NCBI GenBank assembly: GCA_963704755.1
Contig: OY969938.1
Coordinates: 1,740,001-1,772,000, forward strand
Direction of reading: 5' to 3'
From: an uncultured Chloroflexia bacterium
Lineage (GTDB): Bacteria; Chloroflexota; Anaerolineae; Anaerolineales; Anaerolineaceae
Length of the DNA: 32,000 bases
The notes below the pieces were generated by a model. It did not search any database. It was given only the letters and a program-made list of their open reading frames with translations, and was not told where the DNA came from. Positions 2,311-21,463 of this stretch are shown in pieces. A program made the position numbers and the translations under genes. Every line of letters begins with the position of its first letter. Position 1 is the stretch's first letter.

Positions 2311-2425
2311 AATGAATTTTCTGCATTTTTGCTATATTACAGCAAAAACTTCATGTTTTTATAGAAAAGGTTTGTATTGGTCGATGTTTTTACCATACGC
2401 AAGAAATTTTCTCATGCCCACAAGC

Positions 2426-3742: not shown

Positions 3743-3765
3743 TGGCTTGATTTATTCCCAGGTAC

Positions 3766-4169
3766 GTCAAAACCAGTATCACTGTATCCCCCAACCAGGC
3801 TGCTGAAAAAACTTCACAGTAGCCGGTCACCAACAGAGCACCGGGGATACTGGTCCCTGGGTTTCTTTTATAAAAAGCATAATGAATATATTGGTTAAGA
3901 TTATATCCATTGATTTATGCTATTTTTCGCAATAAGGTGGCAAAGCTGAAGAAATGGCTGCTTGACTTTGGGTTCTCCCTTAAATAGTCATTGGGATTTC
4001 TGACGTCGTTGTTTGCGTTGACGTAGGTTCCACCTGGTCTTTTACCGCCCCCGAAGTAGTCTCCGGGGAAAGAGTAAACGCCGTCAAACTCATCCCAACC
4101 GCCGCCGCCATCACCAGTGCGATAATCAAACCATCCCACTTACCGCGTTTTTTCTTGCGGCCGAAGATC
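3766..4169 (-). pseudogene. Cassette stub (module 7): junction/signal-peptide block with lipobox Cys->Phe plus about 300 nt duplicated from the 14.1-14.5 kb cassette; no effector domain
   Basis: The signal-peptide frame reads IFGRKKKRGKWDGLIIALVMAAAVGMSLTAFTLSPETTSGAVKDQVEPTSTQTTTSEIPMTI*. The whole segment aligns by eye with 14062..14470. No ATG/GTG start lies in the selected frame. Confidence 0.6.
4078..4169 (-). repeat. Junction block copy 1 (FGRKKKRGK-WDGLIIALVMAAAVGMSLTAF)
   Basis: Hand alignment with the other six copies. GC-rich relative to its flanks. Confidence 0.85.
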
Positions 4170-4192
4170 GGCGTGATAACCGCATTTTGCGA

Positions 4193-5560
4193 TCATTTCA
4201 GCCAGCCTACCGGCCTCGCCTGATCTGCAATTTTCGTAATGGTATGGTTTTGAAGGTCCACCCAAAGAGTGCTGCTTTGCCAGTCTTTCCAATCCTCGAT
4301 TAGCAGAGATTTGCTATCCGGAGACCAGACGGGTCTGGTTGTATTTACTTGTCCCAATTGTGGGCCAAGATGGATATCATCTCCAAAACGAAATGGCCGC
4401 GAGTTTAGCTCCTGACAGAAGACATCCACTTTTTGGGTTTCCATATCTAATACTGCCAGTTTGCCTGTGTTCTTCGGAAGATTGGTCAAAAGCCAGAATG
4501 CAACGTAGCGGTTGTCAGGAGACCATACCGGTGAATCAATCAATAAATCCGGATAATCCTCCCGAAAGAAACTGACTTGCATCATCTCACCGGTTGAATT
4601 GATGAGATATAACTCATCGTGCCTTGTAAAAGGATCATTCTCCAAATCTGTAACCAGCAATAACTGGCTTCCGTCCGGTGACCATCTTACCCAATCAACA
4701 CGATTTATGGTTGAAAGTACCTTATTCTTTTTCACATTCCATAAGATTGAGGTATGCTTGTTTGAATCAAAATAATACGCATCATACAAAACCAATGAAG
4801 TATCAGGGCTATAGATGAGTGGAGACCCCCATGTCCAATAGATATCTCTATAAAAAATATTCGGAAAATTCGAGGACAGAATGTGTTGTTCATGATCAGA
4901 TAGGTTGATCGAAACCAGATCGTATACTGCTGTGCTTGTTGGATCCTGTAAATCTTCGCCATTTACGTACTGCCGGAAGAGAAGTTGTTCATTATTCAAC
5001 CAACCGAAAAAAGTCCAGCTTTCTGGAAATGAAAAGCGGTCGTATTCATGGCCATTGGAATCCACAATGTTTAGGTCTGCAGAAAAGTGTAAAGTTTTCC
5101 CTTCTGTTAATGCCAGTTTTTCCTTGTCCGGGGATTCGGCATAGATATAATATTCTGGTCCATCGGGCAAATCATAAAAAGAAACCTGGTTTAACTGTGG
5201 GTTCCAAAAAGTCAGTTTTGAGCCTGTATCCGGTTCCGGTATCCATAGCTCATCCCTTGTCAATTGATCGTCAGCGGCAAAGACAAGCGTTCCATCCAAA
5301 TTTGGTAATTCTTTAATCCCGACAATTTTCTCAGGGCAATAGGTATCGATCTCAAACTTATTGGCAGCAAAAGTAGGAGTCAAGTCTTTGATAGGTGTTG
5401 GTTGAAGTATCTCCGCTGTTTTTGTTGGTTCCACGGTTTGAGCACGGGTGCTTATTACAACCGGTACTTCCGTTCTCTGTGGTTGCTCTTTCGGAACTGC
5501 GGTACAACCCACCAGCAAAACCAGGAAAGATAACCCTAATGAGCTTCGAATACTTTTCAT
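4193..5560 (-). CDS. Family-1 PD40-like beta-propeller lipoprotein (module 6 immunity candidate)
   Basis: 476-aa ORF in the track. The probable start is MKSIRSSLGLSFLVLLVGC (ATG 5560), which carries a lipobox. Motifs RWSPDG, VWSPDN and VWSPDS. Ends ...RPVGWLK. Confidence 0.8.
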   Translation of the reverse strand: MKSIRSSLGLSFLVLLVGCTAVPKEQPQRTEVPVVISTRAQTVEPTKTAEILQPTPIKDLTPTFAANKFEIDTYCPEKIVGIKELPNLDGTLVFAADDQLTRDELWIPEPDTGSKLTFWNPQLNQVSFYDLPDGPEYYIYAESPDKEKLALTEGKTLHFSADLNIVDSNGHEYDRFSFPESWTFFGWLNNEQLLFRQYVNGEDLQDPTSTAVYDLVSINLSDHEQHILSSNFPNIFYRDIYWTWGSPLIYSPDTSLVLYDAYYFDSNKHTSILWNVKKNKVLSTINRVDWVRWSPDGSQLLLVTDLENDPFTRHDELYLINSTGEMMQVSFFREDYPDLLIDSPVWSPDNRYVAFWLLTNLPKNTGKLAVLDMETQKVDVFCQELNSRPFRFGDDIHLGPQLGQVNTTRPVWSPDSKSLLIEDWKDWQSSTLWVDLQNHTITKIADQARPVGWLK

Positions 5561-5626
5561 TGTTCGCCTTAATTTCAAGAACCGGTGTTTAGGACGATGG
5601 CCATTCACCACATAGTCTCCCATAAT

Positions 5627-5914
5627 TTATGTTGGTTTTAGTATCATTATACAAGTAGCTGTGGGTGCTTCTGTCGGGGACTCTGTAGCTGCAGGTAACG
5701 TAGATTCGATCTTCGCCGTTGCATTGATTTCATCGTTTGGCGCTGGTGTTGCGGTTATTGTTGCTGTTGCTGTAGGAGTTTCCACGGTCGTTGTCGTTGT
5801 GCCAGGCGTACACGCCGTCAAACTCATCCCGACTGCCGCCACCATCACCAGGGCGATAATCAAACCATCCCACTTGCCGTGCTTCCTCTTGCGGCCGAAG
5901 ATCAACACCAACAA
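5627..5914 (-). pseudogene. Cassette stub (module 6): junction block + Thr/Pro/Ala linker only, effector domain missing
   Basis: LVLIFGRKRKHGKWDGLIIALVMVAAVGMSLTACTPGTTTTTVETPTATATITATPAPNDEINATAKIESTLPAATESPTEAPTATCIMILKPT*, with the stop 3 nt before the next gene's longest ORF. The only possible start is TTG, with no RBS. Confidence 0.5.
5811..5912 (-). repeat. Junction block copy 2
   Basis: cacgccgtcaaactcatcccgactgccgccaccatcaccagggcgataatcaaaccatcccacttgcc... About 59% GC by hand count. Confidence 0.85.
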
Positions 5915-6046
5915 AGTGGATAAATCTTTGAGGCATGAGAGTTGAACTAGCCAGTTTAGGCATCGTGGGTGAGGAAACGTCTAATAATCTTCCTCGGGTT
6001 CAAGATTTCTGGATTCGCTTAGGAGCCTTTAGTTTTATTTTATCTA

Positions 6047-7297
6047 TCATCTAATAATTTGATATTTATAAATTTTATTGTATACGACCATCCAAAGATT
6101 GTGCTGGCTATCCTCTTTTACTGGACTATAGCCATTCGTTATCATACACCATTTACCTTTTTCATATCCCTCCCGAATATCTAGACTTATTACACCACCC
6201 GTGGTGCTAAACCAAACTAAGCCATTTGAGCTTTCAAATATTGCCATTGTTTCAACCCAACCGTATCCTGGTTCGGGCGACTCGGCGTATCGGATAAACT
6301 CGGGCGGTGGAATAAGTTTATAAAATACTAAGTGTTCAGTATCGGAAAAGTCTACCCATCCTTCATGATCCAACCAGAAACGTTGCGACCAATCGAAATA
6401 TTTTGTTAATGGCTGGCGTAACAAATTCGAGAGGTCAATAGAGGGGATATCGGGTTCATTATTCGTTATACTATCAAATAATTTTGTCGTTTGATCATCT
6501 ATAAAATATTGAATTATTTTTCCATTCACTTGATCCTCACTCCACAGGCTTGATCCATCAGGAGCAATATTCAGAAGAAGAAATTCGCCTTGAAGTTGTA
6601 GAGGTTGGCGTTCAACTTCTAATGTCTCTGGATCGAAGCTATAAAGCGTTGACACATTTAAATCAGCATCTTTTACGAACATCCAGAATAACCCTTTGTT
6701 ATCTTCTACGACATCCGAACGAATCTCTCTGGGTGATTGTAAAACTCCCTGGTTATCCAAGATGAAATTAAATCTATCAATGGAAGCATTGTATTGACTA
6801 AGTAAAGGTATACCTTCTTGGTGCGATTGAAATACGTAATTTTCCGCCCACAATATTCCGTTTTTACTAAAGAATAATTTGTGTATCGGCAAAACGAAGT
6901 CATTTTTATCCAGTGTATAAATTTCCTTTTCGTTTTTATCCAAAGAATAAAGAACCAGTTGATTTTGCCCACCATCTCCATATGAAATCCAAATTTGATC
7001 GCTGTCATTTATTGCAAAATCCATCAGATAGGCATCATCTGGAATGGATCCAACTAAATTCCATTGAATAGGCGGAATTTCTTCAATTGTTCGCTGTTGT
7101 ACATCTCCCCCCATCGGAATGACTCCAAGGGAATTAATTGGTTGAATGCACTCGTCTTTTGTTACAAAATGGGTAGTCGCGTCCATCTCTCTGGATCGAT
7201 TTCTGGTTTCTGAAATTATCCCACTACATGCGAAAAGCAAGAAAACAAAAAATATGGGGATTCCATGTCTAATTAGTTTTCTGTCCATTAATGACAT
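6047..7297 (-). CDS. Beta-propeller lipoprotein of a different type (two-component-regulator-propeller-like G.LW repeats); module 5 immunity candidate
   Basis: The track ORF runs 6047..7315 with a TTG start. The ATG at 7297 gives MSLMDRKLIRHGIPIFFVFLLFACSG, which has a lipobox. Repeated QIWISYG, GILWAEN, GLFWMF, SLWSED, GLVWFST and NLWMVV motifs. Confidence 0.7.
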   Translation of the reverse strand: MSLMDRKLIRHGIPIFFVFLLFACSGIISETRNRSREMDATTHFVTKDECIQPINSLGVIPMGGDVQQRTIEEIPPIQWNLVGSIPDDAYLMDFAINDSDQIWISYGDGGQNQLVLYSLDKNEKEIYTLDKNDFVLPIHKLFFSKNGILWAENYVFQSHQEGIPLLSQYNASIDRFNFILDNQGVLQSPREIRSDVVEDNKGLFWMFVKDADLNVSTLYSFDPETLEVERQPLQLQGEFLLLNIAPDGSSLWSEDQVNGKIIQYFIDDQTTKLFDSITNNEPDIPSIDLSNLLRQPLTKYFDWSQRFWLDHEGWVDFSDTEHLVFYKLIPPPEFIRYAESPEPGYGWVETMAIFESSNGLVWFSTTGGVISLDIREGYEKGKWCMITNGYSPVKEDSQHNLWMVVYNKIYKYQIIR

Positions 7298-7302
7298 CCG
7301 GT

Positions 7303-8161
7303 TTATTCTGTACAAGACCAGTTCATTGATTCCAGCACGTCCTGAAATACGTTATCGTTATTAGCCAGATCTATATGCTTAATATCTTTATATATTGGAT
7401 GATTTGCTTGCTCTAGATCCAAAATGGCCCTATCACCATATATAGCTCCTTTTATATTTATAAATATTGGATTTCTATTATTGTCTAGATCATTTGGGGT
7501 ATCGGCTAGAAACAGCGGGGTTTTTGAAGCAATATTGTCTGCTAATGTATCCATATCATTAATATTCGGATAATCAGGATATGCTGATAATGTTGGATCC
7601 AATAATACAATTCAATTGATCAAAGTAGTACCTATGATTGCAGAGGCAGTCAAAACAGCGACATCTGCTCCTCCACTATGACCAATAAAAATGAAATTTG
7701 CCTCTGAATTCTCGTTTTTTATTTGCCCAATTTCTTGTTCAGCCTCAGATGCACAATTTGTTTTTGGTGAACATGAATCGTAATTAATGGATTGAATCTC
7801 ATAATTATTGTCAGTGGCCCATTTATAATATGGCGAAAGCGATAGTCCCACACCGCAGGTTAACCCTTTTCCACAAAACAGAAAAACATAAGTGAAATCG
7901 AGAAGAAATTCACAAGGCTCTGGAGTTTCTACGGGAGATAATGTAAACGACATTGTCTGCTCACCTTCAATCGTAATGGCCGTTACATCAAGTTCATAAT
8001 TTTTGGTTTGGGGAATTGCTATCCATGTTGCAGTTACTGTTCCTTCACTATTATTGGCAGTACCACTGCTGCTTCCACACGCCGTCAAACTCATCCCGAC
8101 TGCCGCTACCATCACCAGGGCGATAATCAAACCATCCCACTTGCCGTGCTTTTTCTGACAT
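7303..8161 (-). pseudogene. Cassette (module 5): junction signal peptide + alpha/beta-hydrolase (lipase/esterase-like, GHSGG) domain, split by an in-frame TGA; ATG one nt out of frame
   Basis: ORFs 7612..8130 and 7303..7602 share one frame across TGA 7612..7614 (...IIGTTLIN*IVLLDPTLSAYP...). The nucleophile elbow FIFIGHSGGADV lies before the stop; candidate Asp (VLLDP) and His (IKHID) lie after it. ATG 8161..8159 sits just upstream of the block in the wrong frame (see findings). Confidence 0.65.
8088..8157 (-). repeat. Junction block copy 3 (QKKHGKWDGLIIALVMVAAVGMSLTAC)
   Basis: Hand alignment. This is the shortest copy; homology starts at the basic cluster. Confidence 0.85.
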
Positions 8162-8225
8162 TGTTATGATCAGATTTGCAACTATTGCTTGAAGCCAATA
8201 CATTTAATTGATTGATTGCTCTCAA

Positions 8226-8254
8226 ATTTAAACAAATCGTTAAATACATTGCAA
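8226..8254 (-). promoter_or_regulatory. Sigma70-like promoter candidate TTGCAA-17nt-TTAAAT upstream of module 5
   Basis: The minus strand reads taagaaTTGCAAtgtatttaacgatttgtTTAAATttgag, directly after the stop of 8258..9325. AT-rich context, so a chance match is plausible. Confidence 0.25.
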
Positions 8255-8257
8255 TTC

Positions 8258-9325
8258 TTAAGGGGCTAATGTCCAATCCGGTGAATCATTAAAACCTGGA
8301 AGATCAGTTAACTGGGTTATATTCGACCCATCTGGTTTCATTACATAGAGATTGTAATTCCCACTCAGGGTTGAAGAAAAAACAATATAATCGCCTCGCG
8401 GAGACCAAGAGGGATCAATATGGTTAATCAACGGAGTTGTTTCAGATCGAGGGGTAATTCTTAATATACAATCCTTGTTTGTGCCATCAGCGTTCATAAC
8501 GCTAATTCCCAAACAAGACCCTTGCAAAGAATTAAACGCAATTTGATTACTATCAGGCGACCAGCGAGGCGTTTTATCCATAGTGAACTGACTATTATTT
8601 AGCCCGGTTAATTGCCTTAGGATCGTGCCACTAATATTCATTAAATAGATACTTTCTGGTGAATATCTACTATTAATATTCTTTCTCAGAATTGCTGATA
8701 TTGCAATCACATCTCCATTTGGAGACCAGGATGGTTGACCTTTCCAATCGCTATTATTTGTTATTTGTTGTTGCTGTGAACCGTCATTGTTAATTATATA
8801 GTATTCGCTGGCAGAAGTATCTGGGTTTGAAATGTAAATGATTTTTTTTCCATCTGGTGACCAGGTGGGATATCCCGCACCAGTTGGAGTTGTATCTTGT
8901 GTTAGCTGGCGTTGATCACTGCCATCCGCATTCATAACAAAAATTTGAGGAAGCCCTCCAGTGCTTCCAGTAAAGGCAATTAGTTTTCCATCTGGTGACC
9001 AGACTGGGGCGTATCCAGAAACCAAATTGGGAGTTAGGTTTTTCAACCCAGTTCCATCTGCATTGATTACATACACATTAAAAGAAGCATCAAATACGAT
9101 TTTCCCTTCTAGCGAAGATAAATCGAGTCCCCCTTGAGTTCCTTTCTGAACTGGCATAAAGGTTGGAAGTGAAGTTTGTACAAATGTAGATGTAGTAGTT
9201 AAGGTAGCGGTCAAAGTGGAGTTATTTGCTTCTGGGCCATTCTCAAGGCTTGCCACACACCCCATGAACAATAAACCCACAAAAAACAATAGCATGATAT
9301 CGTATTTGTGTTTTAGGTTTCGCAT
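8258..9325 (-). CDS. Canonical TolB-like PD40 beta-propeller lipoprotein (module 4 immunity candidate)
   Basis: 355 aa. Signal peptide MRNLKHKYDIMLLFFVGLLFMGC. Regular PD40 blades: VWSPDGKLIAFTG, TWSPDGKKIIYIS, SWSPNGDVIAIS, RWSPDSNQIAFNS, SWSPRGDYIVFSS, plus VINADGTG / VMNADGSD / IINNDGSQ / VMNADGTN / VMKPDGSN turns. AGGTG RBS 5 nt upstream. Confidence 0.85.
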   Translation of the reverse strand: MRNLKHKYDIMLLFFVGLLFMGCVASLENGPEANNSTLTATLTTTSTFVQTSLPTFMPVQKGTQGGLDLSSLEGKIVFDASFNVYVINADGTGLKNLTPNLVSGYAPVWSPDGKLIAFTGSTGGLPQIFVMNADGSDQRQLTQDTTPTGAGYPTWSPDGKKIIYISNPDTSASEYYIINNDGSQQQQITNNSDWKGQPSWSPNGDVIAISAILRKNINSRYSPESIYLMNISGTILRQLTGLNNSQFTMDKTPRWSPDSNQIAFNSLQGSCLGISVMNADGTNKDCILRITPRSETTPLINHIDPSWSPRGDYIVFSSTLSGNYNLYVMKPDGSNITQLTDLPGFNDSPDWTLAP

Positions 9326-9332
9326 GACACAC

Positions 9333-10172
9333 CTATTGAATGATTTTGCTCACCCTGGAAATAAAGTGGGTATTTTCCCCATATGCGTTGTCAAAATCGG
9401 ATTTTTTCATTGCACCTACAAAGTTGTCCAATTGTCCTAATCCATTTTGGTTGCCTACTTTTAGGTCAGAACCTGTATCCGCTACAGTAAAAACTTTTCC
9501 AGGATAAGCATCGATCATAACTTTATCGCCACACGCTAAGTCAGGGTTATTAGTGGCTACCGTTTTCCCTTCTTCGATTGGATATGAATATTTGCAAGAA
9601 CCTCCTTTTTTATAAATAAACACGAATTTTCCATTCTCTTTATCACTCAAGCCATCATCAATTGAGATGTAATGGTTATCCGCAGTGAGACCTGTACCCT
9701 GGACAAGGACACTCCAATGTTGATCCGTGGCATCGTCGTCCTCATAAATAAAATCAACATTATGAGTTTGAGTTTCGATTTTGTTTCCAACTTTCACCTG
9801 AATATCTATCGAACGGTCAGCCCAAGATGAACGAACACTATCATATTTATAATAATCATCACTCTCCATTGGTATAGTATAGTGAGTTATTAGGAAATCG
9901 TAATTAAATGGAATGCTTACTTGGGTTGCCGTCGCGGTGCAATAAGTGGGAGACGATGTTACTGTTTCATCAGTTGAGGTAACCGTGGTAGAAATTGTTA
10001 CTGCTTCAGTTGGAGTTCTGAGTCGGCATCGATGTAGGCTCTATAACAATTTCATCCGTTCCTGTAGAAGTCGTCACCGTTTTACTACACGCCGTCAAAC
10101 TCATCCCGACTGCCGCCACCATGACCAGGGCAATAAGCAACCCGTCCCACTTGGCACGTTTCTTCTTGCGTC
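9333..10172 (-). pseudogene. Cassette (module 4): junction signal peptide + Thr-rich linker + 3D (MltA/YuiC-like double-psi barrel) domain, one frameshift in the linker
   Basis: The signal-peptide frame reads RFFRRKKKRAKWDGLLIALVMVAAVGMSLTACSKTVTTSTGTDEIVIEPTSMPTQNSN* with its stop at 10007..10009. The body frame opens after TAG 10041..10043 and reads TPTEAVTISTTVTSTDETVTSSPTYCTATATQ...MESDDYYKYD... The body ends with ACGDKVMIDAYPGKVFTVADTGSDL...LDNFVG, the 3D-domain Asp pattern. No start codon precedes the basic region. Confidence 0.65.
10088..10172 (-). repeat. Junction block copy 4
   Basis: Hand alignment. Confidence 0.85.
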
Positions 10173-10258
10173 TAAAGAATCTATCTAAAATTTGCCCGAA
10201 AAAGCTTGGGAGAATAATTCGCCCATTACCATAACAGCCATGGGACGAAAATCAATAA

Positions 10259-11290
10259 TTAATCCATTGAATTCCACCATACTGCATCGCCAATATTTAT
10301 ACTTTCTGATGTGCGGATTATTTGGGTCAATCCTGTTCCGTCAGAATTGATTGCATAAATTTTGTAGTCACCATCTAGGTTGGAATTAAGTAGGATATGT
10401 TTACCATCAGACGACCATGTGATTCCTGAAAAGTAGATAAGGGCATTGGATGATTGTTTCAGCAAACAATTTTGCTCAGTCAGATCGAAACTATCGATTT
10501 CGATCCCAACGCATTGAGAAGTTCTTCGATCAGGTGAATAGGCAACCCACTTCCCATCTGGAGACCAAGCTACTGGCCCAGTTGTTACAAGCTCAGGATA
10601 TTCCTTTTGGACGATACCATTCTCATCTACCACATAATTAACGAATGAAAATCTAGTATTAAACTCCGAAATCGCAATCAGCCCATCAGCACGGTAATAG
10701 CCCGTCAAAGGAATATCGTCAGGTTTTTTCTCCACAACAAATCGGTGTCTATCTGTTCCATCTGATTTCATAATATAGATTTGAGGCACTGATTTGCCGT
10801 TAATATTTACAAACTCATCATCAAATGAACCGAACATAATAGTTTTTCCATCCGGAGACCAGGAAGGTTTAAAATCACTTTTATCCCCAGATGTTAATCG
10901 GGTAAAGCCAGAGCCATCGGGTTTAATAATGTATATCCGATATATATCACCTTCCCACGCTGAAAAGGCAATAGATTTTCCATCAGAGGCCCAGGAAAGA
11001 TCGCCAATATACTTAAGACTCGGAGGAGTAACATCAACCTGATTACTGCCATCCGCATTCATAACTTGAATATGATAGTCAGGCATAACACCGGTTATAA
11101 AGGCAATTTTTCCGGTAAGAAATGCCAATGGCGAAGTAGCTGTTGCCAAACCAGATTCTGTTTCTGTTAATGAATGAGTGGGTTGTTGAGTAGGCATAGA
11201 TTCAAAAACAGAGCACCTAGAAAGATTGGTTATGGCAAGGAAGATAATATAAAAGGCCTTTATTATTACGATAACAAAATTCTTTCTCAT
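10259..11290 (-). CDS. Canonical TolB-like PD40 beta-propeller protein with N-terminal signal/anchor (module 3 immunity candidate)
   Basis: 343 aa. Motifs VMNADGSN, SWASDGKSIAFSA, IIKPDGSG, SWSPDGKTIMFGS, IMKSDGTD, AWSPDGKWVAYSP, TWSSDGKHILLNS, AINSDGTG. Its start overlaps the upstream stop as ATGA (11287..11290). Confidence 0.85.
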   Translation of the reverse strand: MRKNFVIVIIKAFYIIFLAITNLSRCSVFESMPTQQPTHSLTETESGLATATSPLAFLTGKIAFITGVMPDYHIQVMNADGSNQVDVTPPSLKYIGDLSWASDGKSIAFSAWEGDIYRIYIIKPDGSGFTRLTSGDKSDFKPSWSPDGKTIMFGSFDDEFVNINGKSVPQIYIMKSDGTDRHRFVVEKKPDDIPLTGYYRADGLIAISEFNTRFSFVNYVVDENGIVQKEYPELVTTGPVAWSPDGKWVAYSPDRRTSQCVGIEIDSFDLTEQNCLLKQSSNALIYFSGITWSSDGKHILLNSNLDGDYKIYAINSDGTGLTQIIRTSESINIGDAVWWNSMD

Positions 11291-12338
11291 GGTTGCACTC
11301 GGGCTGCCTTGAAACGTTTCCCATCATATTGTGTAAATGAGGGATTATGATAATAATTATCGTAGGTCTGTGCACCCACATAAATATCGAAGTGATCTGG
11401 GCCACCATCGGGAACCGTAAAGGTTCCCGAATCACTTACCGTAAAAACTGTGTTCTCGAATCCCGGAATGTCTAGATAATATTTATCACCACATCTATGA
11501 CCGTCCTCCAAATTCAATTTATCGCTGGCAACGGCAATACTTGCGTTTTCTGTCAATGAAATACCGCACGCGCCATGAATTTCGTTTGTAAAGTAATACA
11601 CAGCGCTGGGCTGCCAGTTGTTAACTGGATCGGGGAGGTGATTCTTATCAACGTCTGCTTGAACATATTTCAAACCTCCACTCATTTGCAATGATTGAGA
11701 TTCGGTTAACTCACCTGACCCTTGAAGGGATACACGCCAATTTCCACAGTTACCCTCACATGCATTTCCAACGTAGAAGGCATATTTAGGAACTTTATCG
11801 TAATAAATATCTGCTTTGCTTGAGAAGGGTGGTGAATAAAATGGCACATATTTTTGAAGATTTTTATCTTCGGAAGAAAAAAAAGGATCGTTTTCTGTCA
11901 CTGTAGCATAATGAGTGATTAATACTGTATCTGCGAGCCAATCCCTCAGAGCTGCTGTCCCAGTGCATAGAGTAGGTGTAACCGAAGGAGTCGGCGTTGG
12001 AGTTTGAGTTTTCTGTGTGATTGTTGCCGAATAATTAAAAGTCTGTGTTGCCGTTGATGGAGGCATTACCTGTCCTTCTATTGTTGCCGTGGGCGTCTCC
12101 GCCGAGAAAGAACATGCTGTCAAGGTAACACCGAATGCCGCCACCATGACCAACGCAATGAGCAGCCCATCCCACTTGCCACGCTTTTTCTTGCGCCCGA
12201 AGACCAGCGCCAGCAGGGCCAACGGCGCCACCAATGAGGCAGACGGGTCCCAGGGAACATATGGGTTGGTCTGGTTGGTTTTGGCGTCGCGGGTGAGGAA
12301 GCGCCCGGTAGATGGGTCATAATACTGGCCGTTGCCAA
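11287..12338 (-). CDS. Only uninterrupted cassette (module 3): Rhs-core remnant + hydrophobic/KKKRGK/lipoprotein-signal-peptide junction + Thr/Pro linker + 3D (MltA-like) domain
   Basis: The stop-to-stop frame is open from 12338. It reads VGNGQYYDPSTGRFLTRDAKTNQTNPYVPWDPSASLVAPLALLALVFGRKKKRGKWDGLLIALVMVAAFGVTLTACSFSAETPTATIEGQV...TPTPTPSVTPTLCTG...SIAVASDKLNLEDGHRCGDKYYLDIPGFENTVFTVSDSG...HFDIYVG. There is no ATG; the first alternative start is TTG 12234, so independent translation is doubtful. Confidence 0.7.
12112..12338 (-). repeat. Junction block copy 5, extended with Rhs-core remnant, core and signal peptide in phase
   Basis: Hand alignment. This is the most diverged copy, and most of its differences are synonymous in the signal-peptide frame. 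Confidence 0.8.
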
Positions 12339-12482
12339 CTTAACAGAGGCAAGTTATTAGTCCCATAATGCCACTCAATTAACCAGAGCAAAATTGAGCC
12401 CTACAAAATACTAACATAATTGCAATTAAGAACAAATAGCGGAATGGGAAAAAGAAATTATTGTCATTAACTTTGGCTTCAA

Positions 12483-13758
12483 TTAATTTGGTTTTACAAT
12501 CCATCCAATGGCATTAGAATCAGTGGCAAGATTATATAACTTTCGGGTTTGAATATCGACCAGGAGTAACTCACCAAAACCATTAACATCTGTATTGGAT
12601 ATTGCCAAAAAATGGCTGTCGGGTGACCAAACTGGTGGTACATTCTCATTGTTTGCTGAAGGCAGGGCGTTGATACAAAAACCTTGGGGAACCTCTGAAT
12701 GTAAATCCAGGATTATGTATTTTGAATCGGTTTCCCCGTTCCAATCATACTCGATTTGGAAGGCCAGGTATTTTCCATCCCAAGACCGGCTGGCTTTTGA
12801 AAAAACTGGGGGGCTTTTGAGAAAACTGTTGAAATTTGTAATTCGCTTGATATCCCCATTTCTGGTGATTTGATACCATTCTATCCCGTGATCTGGCCAA
12901 ACATCCATGATCAAAAAGTCGCTTCCATCACTTGACCAAAGTGGATTGTTTGTCCAACTTTCATAAAAATAATCCAGTTTTGCCACAACGGAGTTATTTT
13001 CAATATTCCATAATGCCAAATAAATCATGTCATCCGATTCTTGGGGATAAACCAACCGGGTAAGCGTAGGATCGGGCAAAACATCCCCATGTCCAAAAAA
13101 ATTTGGGGATGCTACGCCGCCCGATTTAAAGGTTTTATAATCCGGTAAATCCTCCAATCGGAATACATGTTCCTTTTCTGTGAATGGATTCCAGATAACT
13201 GTTGTAAAAAAACCTTCTCCATTTATTTGGTGGGTGATAAGTAATGAATCCTTGGAAAACCAGCCTTCTAAAAAGTGATAATCTTCTTTTCTTACTTTCT
13301 GACCTTCCGAACTACCCACTAAAAAACTAGAAACAGGTTCTACAGCAGAGAGAGTCTGGTCATTATTTTGATAGGCGACCCATTTCCCGTCCGGCGAAAT
13401 AAAATAATTCCATGGAAAATTCTCAAGAGAAATGTTTAGATCAACCTTTTTATTGGTATCGAAACTATACAAAGCTGGGATCCCTTCATGCACGACAAAC
13501 AGATTCCAAGGAAGATCGTCGCCGTCTAGAAACGAAGAAGATGTTTCCAAACAACCTGAGAATAACAAATCCTGCAAACTTTGTACTTTTGGTTGTGTCG
13601 TTATTTTTGTAGGAAGCAAAATAGGGGTAGTATTTTCTCCTCCGCTAGTCGCTGTGGGTTGATCGGAAATGCTAGAAGAATTTAAAACTGTGGTCACTGC
13701 AACCGATCAACAGTATAGTAACGAAAAAGTATCCGAGAAAAAATTTCCATTTTGGCAT
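12483..13758 (-). pseudogene. Family-1 PD40-like beta-propeller lipoprotein with a frameshift just after the lipobox (module 2 immunity candidate)
   Basis: ATG 13758 gives MPKWKFFLGYFFVTILLIGCSDHSFKFF*. The 404-aa body ORF (12483..13697) is in another frame that is closed upstream by TGA 13707..13709, so the shift lies within 13672..13707. The body has ISPDGKWVAY, LWSSDGSDF, SWDGKYLAF and VWSPDSHFLAIS motifs and ends ...AIGWIVKPN. Confidence 0.65.
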
Positions 13759-13787
13759 TTCTTGCCTTTCATTTCTCTTTATGGTTT

Positions 13788-14573
13788 TTATTCTGACCAT
13801 CGAGCCGGGTTATCGCAAAGTGCGGAATGAGTTATACCTCCTAATGGATTCGAGTTATTGTAGAAATTAAGTTGACAGAATGTGAAGGCATAGTAATTCT
13901 CTATATTAGCCCCAATCTGATTGATTTTTCGGCCAAATTTTTCCACTGTAGAAGATTTAGATATTACATTACTATAAAAAGTCGGATTAAATCCAGACTT
14001 GCTGTTTCCCCATTCTATTAGGGGATCATCTATCGCTGATCCTTCTTTCCAATGATCCATCAAAACCAGTGTCACTGTATCCCCCAATCAGCCTGCTGAA
14101 AAAACTTCACAGTAGCCGGTTACCAACAAAGCACCGGGGATACTGGTCCCTGGGTTTCTTTTGTAAAAAGCATAATGAATATATTGGTTAAGATTATATC
14201 CATTGATTTATGCTATTTTTCGCAACAAGGTGGCAAAACTGAAGAAATGGCTGCTTGACTTTGGGTTCTCCCTTAAATAGTCATCGAGAATTCTGACGTC
14301 GTTGTTGGCGTTGACGTAGGTTCCACCTGTCCTTCTACCGATGCCGATGGAGTCTCCGTAGAAAAAGTACACGCCGTCAAACTCATCCCGACTGCCGCCA
14401 CCATCACCAGGGCGATGATCAAACCATCCCACTTGCCGGTCTTCCCCTTGTGCATCAGCAGGGCTAATGGCGCCACCAGCGAGGCAGATGGGTCCTTGCG
14501 AAGCACCCTGTGGGCAGGGGACGTAGGGATTGGTCTGGTTCGCCTTGGCCTCGCGGGTCAGAAAGCGCCCGGT
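13788..14573 (-). pseudogene. Cassette (module 2): Rhs-core remnant + junction signal peptide + linker + unrecognised body; several lesions
   Basis: The remnant reads TGRFLTREAKANQTNPYVP. A 19-nt length difference relative to copy 5 puts it out of phase with MLRKDPSASLVAPLALLMHKGKTGKWDGLIIALVMVAAVGMSLTACTFSTETPSASVEGQVEPTSTPTTTSEFSMTI* (stop at 14273). The downstream frame is open to 13788 except for TAA 14208..14210 and TGA 14088..14090. I do not recognise the body domain (...GALLVTGYCEVFSAG*LGDTVTLVLMDHWKEGSAIDDPLIEWGN...) and its true frame is uncertain. Confidence 0.5.
14369..14573 (-). repeat. Junction block copy 6, extended with Rhs-core remnant (out of phase)
   Basis: 14487..14573 is identical by eye to 16709..16795 (87 nt). 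Confidence 0.85.
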
Positions 14574-14627
14574 GAAAACAAATCTTTAATATTAAAGAAT
14601 TAAAAGCACAGTCTTATCCTATTGCAT

Positions 14628-15658
14628 CTATTCATAAGGCCACAAATCTTTAGGGACCTGAATGCAATCTGGATAGTCTGAACTGGTAAAAGTGTTATAA
14701 AACTGATCAATAGACATAATTTGATCGATGGATCGATAGAAGTCCTTGAGGCGGCTTTCGCTCATCCATTTCCAATATTCTTGAGGAATATCTGCAACAA
14801 CATCAGCCAAACTTTTCGAACTCGTTCGGATTCCAGGAAATAATGGTAAGTTCATTAACCTGGCTCAAGCAACCAGTGAAATAATCACCTTCGATATTCT
14901 TAGGTAATAAATAATCAATCAAAAAACCTTGGCTCGGATAAAACAGCAGAACACTGAAAGGGATCCAGGACGATTGACGTGTAGGTACATCGTCTTCAGG
15001 GTCCGGGCCGAAATAAATATTTGTAGGTTTTCCATAGGCATTAAAAATTTGGGGTAACAAGTAATTGGCGTAATGAATTAGGAATGGCGATGTTTGATTC
15101 TTAAAAAATTCAGAAGATTTTTGGGTTTCAAAAACAGCAATATCTAAAAACAAATATTCTATTTCATTCCTTCCTCTATAGCGAAATGAAATATCCGTTT
15201 CCCAGTTGCCCTCCCAATCCATTAAATCTAGAGTTGAATCAAGCTCGGAAGATGCGCTATTTATATAATAATCACCCCAGGCATCAATATTCCCTGGTTT
15301 TCTGATAAATGCCAAAAAATCTTCCGGCGTTTGGGTTACAGGATTTATTCCCCAAATACAAGGCAAACTACAATCACCATTATTCTCGGAAATACCATAA
15401 AGAAAAGTCTTGAAATCAGAAGAGGTCATGGTCGGCGTAAATGTTTCGGTAAAGGAAGGCGTAATTGGGAAGGTGCCTTCTAGAGGTGGACTATTGATAT
15501 CCGCTTGAGTCGGTTTAATAAGAATTCGTAGGCGTATAAGTCACGACCGGAGACCAGGTTGAAGTTTCATTATAGGTGCCCACGCATCCGACCAACAAGA
15601 CCAGGAACCATAACCCGATCAATGGAAAATATATCTTTCTCAGTTGGATTTTATTCAT
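14628..15658 (-). pseudogene. Non-propeller lipoprotein with two frameshifts (module 1 immunity candidate)
   Basis: ATG 15658 gives MNKIQLRKIYFPLIGLWFLVLLVGCVGTYNETSTWSPVVTYTPTNSY* with its stop at 15515..15517. The 208-aa ORF 14803..15429 continues in another frame, open from about 15545 (IKPTQADINSPPLEGTFPITPSFTETFTPTMTSSDFK...). The 75-aa ORF 14628..14855 continues in a third frame. Confidence 0.55.
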
Positions 15659-15676
15659 AACGATTTTCCCAAGAAA

Positions 15677-16808
15677 TCAATTATTTGAAGGAAAAGGCGG
15701 GTTACCCGTCAGCCAAAGAGGCGTATGCTCGTTCATATAATCCCTCCTTTTCGTCCCCCAACTGTTTGCATCAATATCAACAAATCCTGCTCCATCATAA
15801 ACCCAACTCAGAAACATATCCGCAAATGCTTCACGATGCTTAATAATATCATCCTCAGGATTATTAGGTCTTACAGGATGCATTCTTCAAAGCATCGTTT
15901 GATATTCTGGACCTGGATAGTTAAACCCTGCAATTGTTAGAAATTCGCCATATGGATACGATAAAGTATATGGACTGCCAAGGACATATCCTTGTTTACC
16001 AGATTAGTCTTTATATGCCCAGAGATTCGCGAATGCATGACCTAACTCATGAATTACATTATGCACATTCATCTCATGGGCCATCTCAGGGGTTCTATTA
16101 TATTCGCCAGTCGCAGATTTAGATGGATCATAGAATGGCTTTTGAACTGCAAACTCTATCCACCAGGCTGAATGAGTATAACCACCTGCCCCATTACATG
16201 CAGGCAGGTTCCGACCAGAAATTTCAACTTATGGGATGCACTTAGCCGAAATATACTGATAAAACTTGTTATCGGATCCTTCCCTAAAGTACGCCCAAAT
16301 GCATTTGCCACCAGGATCACTGCGTCCTTGAAGTAGGATTTGTATTCGTCGATAACATCAACAAATTGTATAAGGTCCCATAATTCATCCCATCGATCGA
16401 TGGTGGGTTCAGGGGTTTTGGTTATAGTAGCCGTACAAGTAAACGTCGGGGGCGCTGTTACAGGCGGTGGGGTTTCTGTTTGATTAGGAACAATCGTCTT
16501 ACCAGTAGCTTCAACTGTATAATCTCCATTCGGTGTAGGCGTAGCCGTAATTTGGGCGGACAAGGTGGATGTATTAACCGCAGTTGGATCACACACCGTC
16601 AAACTCAAACCCACTGCCGCCACCATCACCAGGACGATAATCAAACTATCCCACTTACCACGCTTTTTCTTGCGGCCGAAGATCAGCACCAGCGCCACCA
16701 GAGAGGCGGATGGGTCCTTGCGAAGCACCCTGTGGGCAGGGGACGTAGGGATTGGTCTGGTTCGCCTTGGCCTCGCGGGTCAGAAAGCGCCCGGTAGATG
16801 GGTAGATC
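15677..16808 (-). pseudogene. Cassette (module 1): Rhs-core remnant + junction signal peptide + Thr/Pro linker + gluzincin-type metallopeptidase domain (HELGH ... EAFAD), decayed
   Basis: ORF 16156..16728 reads MLRKDPSASLVALVLIFGRKKKRGKWDSLIIVLVMVAAVGLSLTVC...TAPPTFTCTATITKTPEPT... There is then a frameshift within 16156..16228. My translation continues ...ACNGAGGYTHSAWWIEFAVQKPFYDPSKSATGEYNRTPEMAHEMNVHNVIHELGHAFANLWAYKD, then TAA (16004..16006), then SGKQGYVLGSPYTLSYPYGEFLTIAGFNYPGPEYQTML, then TGA (15887..15889), then RMHPVRPNNPEDDIIKHREAFADMFLSWVYDG... Confidence 0.65.
16591..16808 (-). repeat. Junction block copy 7, extended with Rhs-core remnant (out of phase)
   Basis: KIYPSTGRFLTREAKANQTNPYVP..., then the same 19-nt-longer variant seen in copy 6. 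Confidence 0.85.
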
Positions 16809-16831
16809 TTATTATCCGCAAAATCTTCATT

Positions 16832-17059
16832 TCACACCGTGTGATACACATTTTTATTCCAATCCGACCAATCTTCGGGGCCATGATACATATATGGAAT
16901 GCCTTTGCTTATTTGCTCTAAGCTTGTTCTTTCAAAAACCCCACCTTTTTTAGGGTGAGTACCTGTCACCCAATTCCCTTGAGTATCTGTAATGGCAGCA
17001 TTTTCGGGGTCGTAATAGGACCTTTTTTTCGGAGGTGGGGTGGGTTGTCGGACATTCAC
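16832..17059 (-). CDS. Hypothetical 75-aa ORF at the island edge, in frame (across one TGA) with the first Rhs remnant; possibly a decayed Rhs fragment
   Basis: MNVRQPTPPPKKRSYYDPENAAITDTQGNWVTG...NKNVYHTV*NEDFADNKIYPSTGRFLTRE, with the TGA at 16832..16834. SYYDPEN weakly resembles the RYYDPE.GRF core motif. The start is GTG with no spaced RBS, and the frame opens inside the terminator hairpin. Confidence 0.3.
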   Translation of the reverse strand: MNVRQPTPPPKKRSYYDPENAAITDTQGNWVTGTHPKKGGVFERTSLEQISKGIPYMYHGPEDWSDWNKNVYHTV

Positions 17060-17131: not shown

Positions 17132-18181
17132 TTATTTGGTTTTGGCCAGTTGACCTAGCCGTTTCCAGCCCTCTTTTAACTGGAAAGATTTCATTTTAAT
17201 CGTGCCAACGATGCCAAAGGGAATGAAAAGGACGAAAGCCACGTAGATTGCTCCGGTGATAAAACTGGCGCCCTCGCCAATGTAGCGGCGTAAGCCAAAA
17301 TCGAGCAGGCGGTAGGTCACTGCGCCAATGAATGCACCATTCAGCGTACCCACTCCACCCAGCAGCACGATCAGCAAAGCGGTCACGGTAAAGCCCATGT
17401 CCGCGACGTTCGGGCTGACAATAGGCTGGTAAAGTGCATGTAAACAACCCGCAAACGCCGCGACCAGCGAGGAGAGCATCAGGGCGATCAGCTTGAAAGC
17501 GAAAGTATTGTACCCCAGCATCTTTGCCCGCCCCTCGTTTTCTCGCACGGCCACGCAGACACGCCCAACCGGGGAGTTTACAAAACGCTGGAAGAGCAGG
17601 TAAAACGCAACCAGAACAATCGCGGCCACGAAGTAAAATCGCAATCGCTCCGCGGCCGGGTTGATATAGGCCGGCACGATCACGCCCTGCAAACCCACAT
17701 CCGACCCCGTGAATTTTCCCAGCTCACTCGAGGTGACGATGATATGGAAAACCGATGCCATACCCAGGGTAACCAGCGCAAACGTAATACCCTTGACCCT
17801 GGGCAATACCAGCCCAAACAGCAGGGCCTGAACGATTGAGGCAACAGCTACCAGGCCGATCACGATGGGTAAGGAAAGGCCAAAATTCTTTATGGCGATG
17901 CCGGTCAGGTATGCACCGACCGCGAAGAACATGGCATGGCCAAAAGAGAGCAGCCCCGTCACCCCAAAAATCAAGTCGTAACTCAAGCCGTAAATTGCTA
18001 GAATAAAAATTTCGATCCCAAGGCCTTCGATGAACTTGGAGATACTGCCCTGGTTCATCCAAACCGCGGCGGGCGAAACCCCTTCCAACAGACCCACCCC
18101 AAAGGGCAGCAAGGCCACGATCAGGAATGAAATTAAAATAAACCGGTTGTTGGCGAAAAAAGAAGATTTTGATTTTTGCAT
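17132..18181 (-). CDS. livM: Branched-chain amino acid ABC transporter permease, LivM type
   Basis: Trimmed to ATG 18181 (MQKSKSSFFANNRFILISFLIVALLPF...), 349 aa. The 149-aa N-terminal extension of the track ORF overlaps livH out of frame and reads as GC-rich nonsense. Polytopic membrane protein with LSFGHAMFFAVGAY and LLGGVGTLNGAFIGA motifs typical of the family. Confidence 0.85.
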   Translation of the reverse strand: MQKSKSSFFANNRFILISFLIVALLPFGVGLLEGVSPAAVWMNQGSISKFIEGLGIEIFILAIYGLSYDLIFGVTGLLSFGHAMFFAVGAYLTGIAIKNFGLSLPIVIGLVAVASIVQALLFGLVLPRVKGITFALVTLGMASVFHIIVTSSELGKFTGSDVGLQGVIVPAYINPAAERLRFYFVAAIVLVAFYLLFQRFVNSPVGRVCVAVRENEGRAKMLGYNTFAFKLIALMLSSLVAAFAGCLHALYQPIVSPNVADMGFTVTALLIVLLGGVGTLNGAFIGAVTYRLLDFGLRRYIGEGASFITGAIYVAFVLFIPFGIVGTIKMKSFQLKEGWKRLGQLAKTK

Positions 18182-18183
18182 GA

Positions 18184-19731
18184 TTATTCCTTTTTCCCCA
18201 ACAGACCGCCGGGCAGGATAAGAAGAACGATAACCATAAGCAGCAGCGTCGAGGCGGGCACGATCGGCGGCGTAGGCTTGAACACAATATCCGTGAAGGG
18301 GATGGCAATCCCAATCTGGCCATATTTGATGATCATTTGCTGGATCAACCCGACCAATAAAGAGCCCAGGGCCGCCCCCGGGAAACTGGTCAGGCCACCG
18401 ATTGCCAGGGCGATCAATGCGCCGAGCAAAAGACTTTCTCCCATCGAATTGGACAGGCCCATAGAAGGCGCCGCGATGGCGCCCCCAAATGTCGCCAGGC
18501 CAACGCCCAGGGCGAAAACCAGGGTGAACACTCGGCGAACATTGATCCCCAGTGCTTCCACCATCTCGCGATCCTGGACGCCGGCGCGAATAATCATGCC
18601 AAGGCGAGTCCGCTTGAGCAATATCCATATTCCGATGAGAACGATGATGCCCACCAGCGGAATGATGATTTCATCGTAAACCCGTACCCGTCCGTTGAGC
18701 AGGAAAATTGTGGAACAATGGTTTTGCCACCAATCCGCAAGGCTGGTCGCCGGGCAATTCGTTCCGGCATTATTGAAAAGCGAAGCCTTGGGCATGACGA
18801 ATTCTGGCCGGCCCCAGACCGCCCGTACCATTTCGACGCCAATCGAGCTTAGTCCAACGGTCAGCATCAATTGATAAATTGGGCGGGAGTACAGCGGCCG
18901 GATGAGGGTCAACTCCATCAATGCGCCTAAACCCATGCCGCTGGCTGTAGCAACCACCAGCGCAATCAAAAACAACCAGGCCGAATCCATAGCAAGCAGA
19001 GCATTGGTCAGCCCATCGTTGAAGACAAAAATTACTACCCCAATAACCAGCAGGGCGCCAAAGAGGACGAAATTTCGCCAGGTCAATTTCGCCGGCCGCT
19101 GTACCGATTTTCCGAAGAGTGCCAGTGAAAAGGCCCCTAACATGCTGGCGGCCAGCAAACCCACAATCGCCAGGCCGGGTGAAATTGCCTGGAATATCGC
19201 TTTCACCGCGGGAAGGCGTGTGCCTTGATTGGCCATGAACGAGTAGGTCACCGGGCTCTGGGCATAATTGCCGAGATTCCAGATAGCAATCGGATATTTC
19301 GGAAGGACCAGCACAAAGAGACCTATCGAGATCGCGATCAATATCCACGGTAAGAACCGGCCAAACTTCGCATCGATCCGCAGGCGGCCGTGAATATAAT
19401 TCCACAAATCCCGCAGGGCAAATCCACTCAAGATGAACAAGAGGAGGGGCAGCAAATCGACGAAGGTATCCGGGCGGACGAAAACCGTCCAGGCAATGTA
19501 CGCCCCAATCATGAACAGGGTCCCATGGGCAAGGTTGAGCACATCCAGCAGCCCAAATACCAGCGAGAAGCCCGAAGCCACGAGAAACGTAACCGATCCA
19601 ACCGAGAGACCGCGCAGCAGGGTAATCACAAAATCTTGAGGCGACAATCCCTGGGAAGCGGCAAAGAACAGGACCACAATAATGGCCAGTGTGAAAATCA
19701 GCAGGGTGTTTTTTCGGAAGAATTGGTTCAC
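18184..19731 (-). CDS. livH: Branched-chain amino acid ABC transporter permease, LivH type, with a large internal insertion (515 aa)
   Basis: The N-terminal part LRGLSVGSVTFLVASGFSLVFGLLDVLNLAHGTLFMIGAY and the C-terminal part IRPLYSRP...GINVRRVFTLVFALGVGLATFGGAI match the LivH family. Its stop is 2 nt before the livM ATG. Confidence 0.85.
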   Translation of the reverse strand: MNQFFRKNTLLIFTLAIIVVLFFAASQGLSPQDFVITLLRGLSVGSVTFLVASGFSLVFGLLDVLNLAHGTLFMIGAYIAWTVFVRPDTFVDLLPLLLFILSGFALRDLWNYIHGRLRIDAKFGRFLPWILIAISIGLFVLVLPKYPIAIWNLGNYAQSPVTYSFMANQGTRLPAVKAIFQAISPGLAIVGLLAASMLGAFSLALFGKSVQRPAKLTWRNFVLFGALLVIGVVIFVFNDGLTNALLAMDSAWLFLIALVVATASGMGLGALMELTLIRPLYSRPIYQLMLTVGLSSIGVEMVRAVWGRPEFVMPKASLFNNAGTNCPATSLADWWQNHCSTIFLLNGRVRVYDEIIIPLVGIIVLIGIWILLKRTRLGMIIRAGVQDREMVEALGINVRRVFTLVFALGVGLATFGGAIAAPSMGLSNSMGESLLLGALIALAIGGLTSFPGAALGSLLVGLIQQMIIKYGQIGIAIPFTDIVFKPTPPIVPASTLLLMVIVLLILPGGLLGKKE

Positions 19732-19739
19732 TTCTAATC

Positions 19740-20444: not shown

Positions 20445-20499
20445 GTGTACCCCGTTGCATGAATGGGTGTTGACTGCTTGAAACGACGGATCAGGGGAT

Positions 20500-21452: not shown

Positions 21453-21463
21453 AGGAACCAGTA

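Follow-up and report, generated by a model that had tools for sequence, protein, structure and literature searches.

How can an Rhs protein release a C-terminal toxin if the end of its core runs straight into what reads as a membrane hairpin and a lipoprotein signal peptide? This question is raised by an open reading frame (ORF) at positions 11287–12345, on the minus strand of a 32,000-nucleotide stretch of contig OY969938.1 from an uncultured Chloroflexia bacterium (GCA_963704755.1). We refer to this whole stretch as the window. Rhs toxins are thought to cage their toxin and to free it by self-cleavage. An initial annotation, made from the sequence alone, read a lipoprotein signal peptide directly behind an Rhs cleavage-type motif, and suggested that the delivered toxin is re-exported and lipidated by the recipient cell or tethered in the membrane of the producer. 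We found that the junction between the Rhs core and the module behind it is real biology and no accident. With modest confidence, we read the segment as the conserved junction ('pre-toxin') module of an orphan cassette from an Anaerolineae-specific, Sec-exported family of Rhs polymorphic toxins. In this family, release of the payload, a lipid-anchored cell-wall enzyme, is probably due to a signal peptidase and not to Rhs self-cleavage.

The junction module in the window

The frame translates as a cysteine and a stop codon followed by VGNGQYYDPSTGRFLTRDAKTNQTNPYVPWDPSA, SLVAPLALLALVFG, RKKKRGK, WDGLLIALVMVAAFGVTLTAC and SFSAETPTAT..., with its own stop at 11287–11289. The initial reading of 12112–12338 was correctly transcribed and placed, including the cysteine codon at 12112–12114. 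The first of these parts is a remnant of an Rhs core. It aligns to the ends of solved Rhs shells and scores 15.4 bits against TIGR03696 (Rhs_assc_core; cutoff 32.5), with only the last third of the domain present, and the YD-repeat shell is not there. As an in-frame TAA (12340–12342), five codons upstream of YYDP, precedes this remnant and leaves 34 residues of core in frame, the cassette is a headless orphan and not part of an Rhs gene as first supposed. It is the fifth of seven copies in the window and, as the initial annotation stated, the only one in phase: copies 1–4 retain only the basic loop and the signal peptide, and in copies 6 and 7, the only others with a YD remnant, a 19-nucleotide (nt) insertion between NPYVP and DPSA breaks the frame.

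Hydropathy shows two peaks with a +5 cluster between them. For the 99-residue module, AlphaFold2 (23-sequence alignment; mean predicted local distance difference test score, pLDDT, 63) models a YD beta-hairpin, a helix at residues 33–48 (helix 1), a loop at 49–54 and a helix at 55–74 (helix 2) that reaches the lipobox, followed by disorder. The parts of a lipoprotein signal (a charged n-region, an h-region and a lipobox of the form [LVI][ASTVI][GAS]C) are present as RKKKRGK, WDGLLIALVMVAAFGV and TLTAC. Their position is internal and not at the N-terminus of a precursor, with a hydrophobic helix ahead of them and, in full genes, a further 1,800–3,300 residues. The feature lies well outside what chance would give; a 40-nt probe, for instance, had no matches in shuffled sequence.

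The segment had also been read as a sorting signal of the sortase or exosortase type. This candidate is ruled out by position: in the frame, the basic cluster has about 295 residues behind it, so the segment is not at the C-terminus. The signals of the LPXTG/sortase, PEP-CTERM/exosortase and MYXO-CTERM/myxosortase systems (PMC11980579) share the short motif, hydrophobic stretch and basic cluster, but they form the end of the protein and a dedicated sorting enzyme cleaves them off, whereas here a signal peptide and a whole domain come after. No sortase-like gene was seen among the ORFs of the window.

If expressed, the window cassette must start at TTG 12234 or GTG 12231, and the headless product would act as a lipoprotein precursor with a hydrophobic N-terminal extension. 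A promoter scan found no convincing promoter for this copy (6 matches, against 3.3 ± 2.0 in shuffled sequences), and the cassette is possibly silent. The public gene call for 11287–12063 (P0191, 100% identical, 259 residues; P numbers denote proteins and L numbers loci) starts at an internal linker methionine (MPPSTATQ...), so that signal peptide, hairpin and Rhs remnant are all missing from it. The starts of relatives are misplaced in a similar way, P0192 at MYTGKRKRSK and the genes of L003 at VAPLALL.

The module in full-length Rhs proteins

A word-indexed homologue search retrieved 47 relatives, all of them short (≤173 residues). An exhaustive HMMER profile search of 1.84 billion proteins gave 1,491 cluster representatives at E ≤ 1e-3, of which 255 reached E ≤ 1e-30, the best E-value being 1e-62. 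Long proteins with an internal module are P0127 (2983 residues, module at 2556–2699), P0128 (2662 residues), P0140 (2816 residues), P0165 (2227 residues), P0170, P0092, P0137 and P0115. The full-length relatives are Rhs proteins of 1,800–3,300 residues, the last YD repeats of which run in frame into the module. The three that were scanned (P0127, P0128 and P0165) contain 16–22 RHS repeats and DUF6531, and Pfam reported no PAAR or VgrG domain in them. N-terminal Sec signal peptides are present on P0127, P0137, P0140 and P0165 and on the genes of L015, L039 and L040. TIGR03696 matches 100 of 104 relatives at E ≤ 1e-3.

A scan of GTDB species genomes yielded 46 loci, almost all in metagenome-assembled genomes (MAGs) of Anaerolineae/Chloroflexota. 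At ten of these (L010, L015, L017–L019, L025, L030 and L039–L041), the module is in frame with 2,000–3,300 upstream and 270–380 downstream residues, and shorter orphan cassettes then follow. A near-identical array with intact cassettes lies on a 424-kb metagenomic contig (L003). The YD-repeat proteins with this module, for which the initial annotation had advised a database search, were thus found, both as proteins (P0127, P0128, P0140 and P0165) and at the ten loci. Its caveat that the module might never be contiguous with an Rhs core in a gene does not hold. Chance hydrophobic low complexity is ruled out by the conservation over 181 modules. A scan of metagenomes with the module DNA gave one chance match, in an M23-peptidase-like gene (L052), and the pattern was also not found in the loci retrieved; the short module as a query against PDB sequences returned only noise.

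The Rhs aspartyl-protease motif

Canonical Rhs ends carry two DPLGL motifs 17 residues apart, and a D-to-N change at either catalytic aspartate abolishes cleavage (PMC8636562, PMC8765631). Our definition of an autoprotease was two DPxGL motifs 17 residues apart, with both catalytic aspartates and the context PxxxxDPxG[LWF]. Reference motifs came from a canonical Rhs-end query against PDB sequences, in which solved Rhs ends read ...YDPxxGRFxxxDPIGLxGGxNLYQYxxNPxxWIDPxG[LW].

The modules can be aligned to these ends in two ways. With MAFFT, NPYVPW[DN]PxG corresponds to NPxxxxDPxG, and the first DPxGL is gone through a 9-residue deletion. This agrees with the initial assignment of NPYVPWDPSA to the pattern NP-x4-DP-x-G. 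By the end-points of the TIGR03696 hidden Markov model alignment, NPY lies opposite NLY and [DN]PxGA opposite NPxxxx, which makes 'xPLGL' at the start of helix 1 what is left of DPxGL. Ahead of PL there is A, G, S, T, L or V, but in no case D. In this alignment the second aspartate is never present. In the MAFFT alignment, position 1 is D in 31%, G in 27% and N in 26%; position 2 holds D in 49% and N in 39%, with a spacing of 13–15 and not 22. Both aspartates occur in 33 of 162 modules and in none of the eight long proteins, all of which lack the first. The window copy keeps both candidate aspartates; the context of its first motif is absent (DAKT) and its second motif has no glycine.

As judged from these sequences, the aspartyl-protease dyad is incomplete under either alignment, and the two-motif arrangement is not found. 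This suggests that self-cleavage has been lost in most or all members, as in teneurins. Release of the toxin at the Rhs cleavage motif, as the initial annotation had it, is doubtful given the degenerate dyad in the family.

A lipoprotein-type signal peptide behind the core

Across the family, helix 1 has a median length of 14 residues (range 12–16) with P39 and L40 invariant, the loop has a median of 6 residues and a net charge of +4, and the distance from the loop to the cysteine is 20–23 residues. Helix 1 and the loop are conserved as strongly as the signal peptide. The lipobox cysteine is found at the same position in 158 of 181 unique modules by a strict pattern and in about five more by a relaxed one (GMAC), which amounts to about 87–90%. 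About 10 of the 181 lack the cysteine and have a signal-peptidase-I site of the AxA type there instead (P0149 AMPVQA/AS, P0181 PAFA/DE, and VFA/N). As one position with sites for two different peptidases would otherwise be difficult to account for, helix 2 appears to be cleaved as a signal peptide. The claim of a lipoprotein signal peptide directly after the Rhs core end is borne out in this respect, and the conservation pattern supports the second hydrophobic segment as a genuine signal peptide of this type.

The modules with the AxA site form a sub-clade without the lipobox cysteine (L012, L026 and L027, from Leptolinea and other Chloroflexota MAGs; P0149, P0159, P0161 and P0181). Because the cysteine is lost, their payloads would be freed as soluble and not lipid-anchored proteins.

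The host clearly makes lipoproteins with a lipobox and a Thr/Pro stalk, such as the substrate-binding protein of an ATP-binding cassette (ABC) transporter at 21464–22885 (...LMLSAC-APTATPAP), which also supports helix 2 as a signal peptide. The linker of copy 5 resembles the stalk behind the lipobox of this protein.

Payloads and partner genes

Payload domains recognised by Pfam and NCBIfam in the family are Polysacc_deac_1 (polysaccharide or peptidoglycan deacetylase), Amidase_6, Amidase_2, SLT, NlpC/P60, expansin-like DPBB, Peptidase_C39_2 and Ntox44, as well as Lipase_3 in the window. In our reading, P0127 carries a GH19-like motif. Judged by these domains, the recognisable payloads are cell-envelope enzymes.

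The payload of copy 5 recurs behind the same module in P0167, P0192 and P0194, and is 31% identical to that of P0165, which has DTGTFPD..HLDVFIG. It had initially been called a 3D domain. Pfam gave no match to this domain (PF06725) in it at E ≤ 0.01 or at E ≤ 10. The AlphaFold2 model of the payload was built from a 6-sequence alignment and has a pLDDT of 45, reaching 70–78 only over the last 90 residues; the top 10 Foldseek matches of this poor model are all MltA-type lytic transglycosylases (best E 9.6e-3). A 3D-like payload is plausible on the basis of this model, and its similarity to MltA is only a hint.

Among 41 intact cassettes with a downstream ORF, the partner has a strict lipobox in 25, and most of the others have a transmembrane or lipobox-like N-terminus. 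In many cassettes, payload stop and partner gene overlap as ATGA. With payloads that act outside the membrane and partners that are exported, the arrangement fits export of the payload by an internal signal.

Proposed mechanism and alternative explanations

We lean towards a model in which the full-length protein would be a Sec-exported polyprotein, split by a stop-transfer helix and an internal signal peptide, with release and lipid anchoring through Lsp. The N-terminal signal peptide would start Sec export of the Rhs body, helix 1 would halt transfer, leaving the basic loop in the cytoplasm, and helix 2 would restart translocation as an internal signal peptide. Lgt would lipidate the cysteine and signal peptidase II (LspA) would cut the payload off, with signal peptidase I acting in the AxA variants. 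As the aspartyl-protease dyad has decayed in the family, a signal peptidase would thus take over release. The payload would end as a stalked, lipid-anchored cell-envelope enzyme on the outer face of the membrane, and the Rhs shell would stay tethered by the hairpin. The GC-rich module DNA may double as a homology handle for cassette recombination. Membrane insertion on the producer side would fit better than re-export in a recipient, because the full-length proteins have N-terminal Sec signals, the payloads act on the wall and the partners are lipoproteins. The best explanation would be that signal peptidase II replaced Rhs autoproteolysis, so that every orphan translated from any upstream in-frame start would remain export-competent without an Rhs head, which is a milder version of the re-export idea.

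Several points weigh against this model. About 20% of modules retain both candidate aspartates, and some autoproteolysis is possible in these. Helix 1 is short (12–16 residues) and has an invariant proline, and may not stop transfer efficiently. The window cassette is headless and without an evident ribosome-binding site, and five of the six other cassettes in the window are visibly decayed. A payload that is cut off outside the shell would leave a large Rhs cage without an explained role, and the route of a lipid-anchored enzyme to a competitor cell would be unclear.

Could the hairpin and the lipobox serve only to anchor the Rhs body, with the payload displayed on the surface and toxin release not the purpose? 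The layout of motif, hydrophobic stretch and basic cluster resembles that of retention signals. The only curated model that spans NPYVPW and both helices up to the stalk, NCBIfam NF058595, is named 'lipo-invert putative C-terminal anchoring domain'; it aligns over profile positions 21–101 of 113 and matches 56 of 104 tested members at E ≤ 1e-3 (best E 7.4e-8). However, the window scores 21.9 bits and none of the 104 reaches the curated 37-bit cutoff. Moreover, NF058595 describes a C-terminal tail, whereas the module is internal, with 270–400 residues of polymorphic enzyme behind it. A payload with a tightly coupled partner gene in a cassette array is a toxin–immunity signature, and the AxA variants imply cleavage. 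We regard anchoring alone as unlikely. It is rather improbable that the module is a recombination scar, in which the cassettes would be ordinary, independent lipoprotein genes and the Rhs fragment and first hydrophobic stretch untranslated, functionless leftovers. In the window, the remnant lies behind a stop, the array has no Rhs gene at its head and copies 1–4 retain the signal-peptide part only, and the gene calls of P0192 and L003 start inside the module, all as expected of a scar. Against this, at least 10 diverged genomes have the module contiguous and in frame with complete Rhs genes, conservation of helix 1 and the loop equals that of the signal peptide, invariant Pro-Leu included, and the stretch from helix 1 to the basic loop has no conserved start codon.

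The two remaining alternatives both retain release at the core end. Canonical autoproteolysis at [DN]PxG might persist, with the two leading helices of the toxin inserting in the target membrane for self-translocation. Hydrophobic regions act in this way in some Rhs effectors, the window copy has an aspartate at both candidate positions, and P-x4-D-P-x-G is retained under the MAFFT alignment. The absence of the first DPxGL, the shortened spacing and the asparagine at the second position in 39% of modules, which resembles the inactivating D-to-N mutants, argue against this, and the conserved lipobox cysteine with its alternative AxA sites points to signal peptidases; we consider it quite improbable. 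Recipient re-export, the proposal of the initial annotation, would have the Rhs shell deliver the C-terminal piece into a neighbour, whose own Sec/Lgt/Lsp machinery would export and lipid-anchor the enzyme. If true, the victim would install a weapon against its own wall. The module lies exactly where released Rhs toxins begin, and the payloads need the extracytoplasmic face. But the proteins are Sec-exported and the three scanned with Pfam showed no domains of an injection apparatus, the protease dyad that release would require is degenerate, a route in and out again is roundabout when the target wall is exposed, and helix 1 would have no role. This makes re-export very improbable, and we retain the polyprotein model with signal peptidase release.

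Comparison with known systems

With the Rhs polymorphic toxins that have arrays of orphan C-terminal cassettes (Rhs of E. coli, Serratia and Salmonella; Tc-toxin TcC), the module family shares a YD-repeat shell, a conserved core end, a variable C-terminus of lower GC content, an adjacent immunity gene and downstream headless cassettes with common 5' homology. Unlike these, it is exported by an N-terminal Sec signal and not by a type VI secretion system or Tc partners. It further differs from them in its degenerate two-DPxGL dyad, in the hairpin and internal lipobox signal between core and payload, in payloads that are wall or membrane enzymes and in immunity candidates that are lipoproteins. 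Its architecture and homology place it among the Rhs polymorphic-toxin systems, but it differs from every described Rhs in its junction and in its apparent loss of the autoprotease.

To our knowledge, the Sec-dependent YD-repeat toxins of the WapA type in Gram-positive bacteria are nucleases set free from the C-terminus and have no internal signal peptide or lipobox. Like the module family, they have an N-terminal signal peptide, a YD-repeat protein displayed on the surface of a cell that lacks a classical outer membrane, a polymorphic C-terminus and an immunity gene (see also PMC12704120). Teneurins and bacterial teneurin-like proteins resemble the module family in that the C-terminal plug is not an active aspartyl protease and a C-terminal domain lies outside the YD shell (PMC8765631). 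Unlike the module family, teneurins are anchored by an N-terminal transmembrane helix and lack the C-terminal hairpin, the lipobox and the cassette array; PDB teneurins match only the shell. The combination of lipobox, unstructured linker, polymorphic toxin and adjacent immunity gene is also found in Myxococcus SitA (PMC5562445) and in Gram-positive lipobox–linker–toxin pairs (PMC12419801). The module family resembles these toxins in its predicted lipid anchoring. They are small proteins that carry the lipobox signal at their very N-terminus; in the module family the signal comes after 1,800–3,300 residues of Rhs protein and a predicted stop-transfer helix.

A 2012 survey of polymorphic toxins refers to a lipobox in just two settings, the N-terminal prodomains of Amoebophilus and a single immunity family. 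In the literature, we found no paper on an Rhs protein with an internal signal peptide or release by signal peptidase II, nothing relevant on Rhs in Anaerolinea, and no publication on the NF058595 'lipo-invert' domain. The initial annotation took the module to be undescribed, which holds for publications, although the below-cutoff matches to NF058595 mean that it is not wholly unrecognised. As far as could be found, the family is a well-conserved, unpublished variant of Rhs architecture with a testable mechanism.

The cassette array of the window

The signal-peptide segment occurs in seven minus-strand copies spaced by about 2 kb (starts at 4053, 5787, 8054, 10064, 12089, 14346 and 16568; Table 1). 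The cassettes have the attributes of orphan cassettes: core-end sequence in common with full genes, a variable domain, a partner gene and a tandem arrangement. The module copies are GC-rich islands (58–60%) inside cassettes of 33–45% GC, and the adjoining housekeeping genes have 53–60%. Behind every module come a variable ORF and, next, a beta-propeller gene (PD40 or Reg_prop) that has a lipoprotein-like signal of its own. The payload ORF is intact only in copy 5, and in most copies it is broken or truncated; that of copy 7 (16156–16728) is shorter than its counterpart in L003 (7799–8812). Apart from Lipase_3 in one, Pfam found no match in the variable ORFs of the array. The partner gene of copy 5 overlaps the payload stop by 4 nt (ATGA).

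Table 1. Positions in the window of the parts of cassette copy 5, its partner gene and the other module copies.
Feature	Position	Strand	Basis
TAA stop, in frame, directly 5' of the Rhs remnant	12340..12342	-	translation (C, stop, VGNGQYYDP...)
Rhs core C-terminus remnant, 34 residues, VGNGQYYDPSTGRFLTRDAKTNQTNPYVPWDPSA	12238..12339	-	weak TIGR03696 match; alignment to solved Rhs shell ends
Hydrophobic segment 1, 14 residues, SLVAPLALLALVFG, Pro-Leu invariant; predicted stop-transfer helix, first hairpin arm	12196..12237	-	hydropathy, AlphaFold2
Basic loop RKKKRGK, +5; predicted cytoplasmic, n-region of signal peptide	12175..12195	-	translation
Signal peptide h- and c-regions, 21 residues, WDGLLIALVMVAAFGVTLTAC, ending in lipobox L-T-A-C; Cys codon 12112–12114	12112..12174	-	
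Thr/Pro/Ser-rich linker, about 50 residues, disordered	11962..12111	-	translation, AlphaFold2
Variable payload domain, 224 residues and stop; candidate MltA/3D-like double-psi beta-barrel	11287..11961	-	
Partner gene of copy 5, PD40/TolB-like beta-propeller, N-terminal lipobox-like signal; candidate immunity protein	10259..11290	-	PD40 6.5e-18
Module copy 7, array head; YD remnant, 19-nt frameshifting insertion, signal peptide end LTVC	16568..16810	-	
Module copy 6; YD remnant, 19-nt insertion, eroded basic loop MHKGKTGK, lipobox intact, payload broken	14346..14590	-	
Module copy 4, RRKKKRAKWDGLLIALVMVAAVGMSLTAC; stop after linker, payload ORF 9333–9869 detached	10064..10183	-	
Module copy 3, KKHGKWDGLIIALVMVAAVGMSLTAC; payload contains Lipase_3	8054..8173	-	
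Module copy 2, LIFGRKRKHGKWDGLIIALVMVAAVGMSLTAC; ORF ends after linker	5787..5906	-	
Module copy 1; lipobox Cys to Phe (SLTAF), decayed	4053..4172	-	

The candidate immunity genes of the array (578–1921, 2426–3016, 4193–5623, 8258–9325, 10259–11290 and 12483–13697) encode PD40/TolB-like beta-propellers of 196–476 residues with WSPDG repeats and lipoprotein-type signals. A large beta-propeller is unusual in fold and size for an immunity protein of a polymorphic toxin. Over the array as a whole (578–16850), the payload ORFs are mostly decayed and the beta-propeller partner genes intact, the pattern expected for an immunity island that keeps protection after toxin loss.

A direct repeat of 300 nt with 93% identity lies just downstream of copies 1 and 6 (3767–4066 and 14060–14359). 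Cassettes 1 and 6 therefore share the start of the payload, which suggests a recent duplication or gene conversion. The 19-nt mini-insertion of copies 6 and 7, CCCACAGGGTGCTTCGCAA (minus strand, 14494–14514 and 16716–16736), replaces the Trp codon of 'PWG/PWD' and has no matches in shuffled sequence. In relatives it adds about 8 residues in frame, L[SP][RP][ES]GMLRE. It was found in 12 of 190 proteins (P0023, P0026, P0096, P0152, P0005, P0013, P0017, P0018, P0106, P0126, P0154 and P0177) in two different places of the Rhs tail, -38/-47 and +29 counted from YYDP. The insertion contains the near-palindrome GCTTCGCGAAGG, and several orphan fragments have it at their 5' boundary. It may represent a small element that is mobile or associated with recombination.

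Upstream of the array, the translated ORFs at 17132–22885 form an operon for a Liv-type ABC transporter, and no Rhs gene heads the array. Its two permease ORFs, 17132–18628 and 18184–19731, have about 445 nt in common as listed. In the former, the initial 150 residues look non-genic (Arg/Gly/Pro-rich), and the real start of this ORF is probably the internal MQKSKSSFF...

Implications

The module family suggests a solution other than caging and self-cleavage in bacteria without injection machines. If our model is true, the general signal peptidases would divide a single long Sec substrate in two: an Rhs shell that stays tethered, and a wall-degrading enzyme with a lipid anchor. This would be a rare bacterial case in which an internal type II signal peptide makes two exported products from one gene, and it would raise the question of what the apparently empty Rhs shell does. 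Recognition of the module would also improve annotation, as gene callers currently truncate the genes that bear it; the window gene is on record with 259 residues. Finally, if the model holds, orphan cassettes would not necessarily be silent spares, as each has its own export signal.

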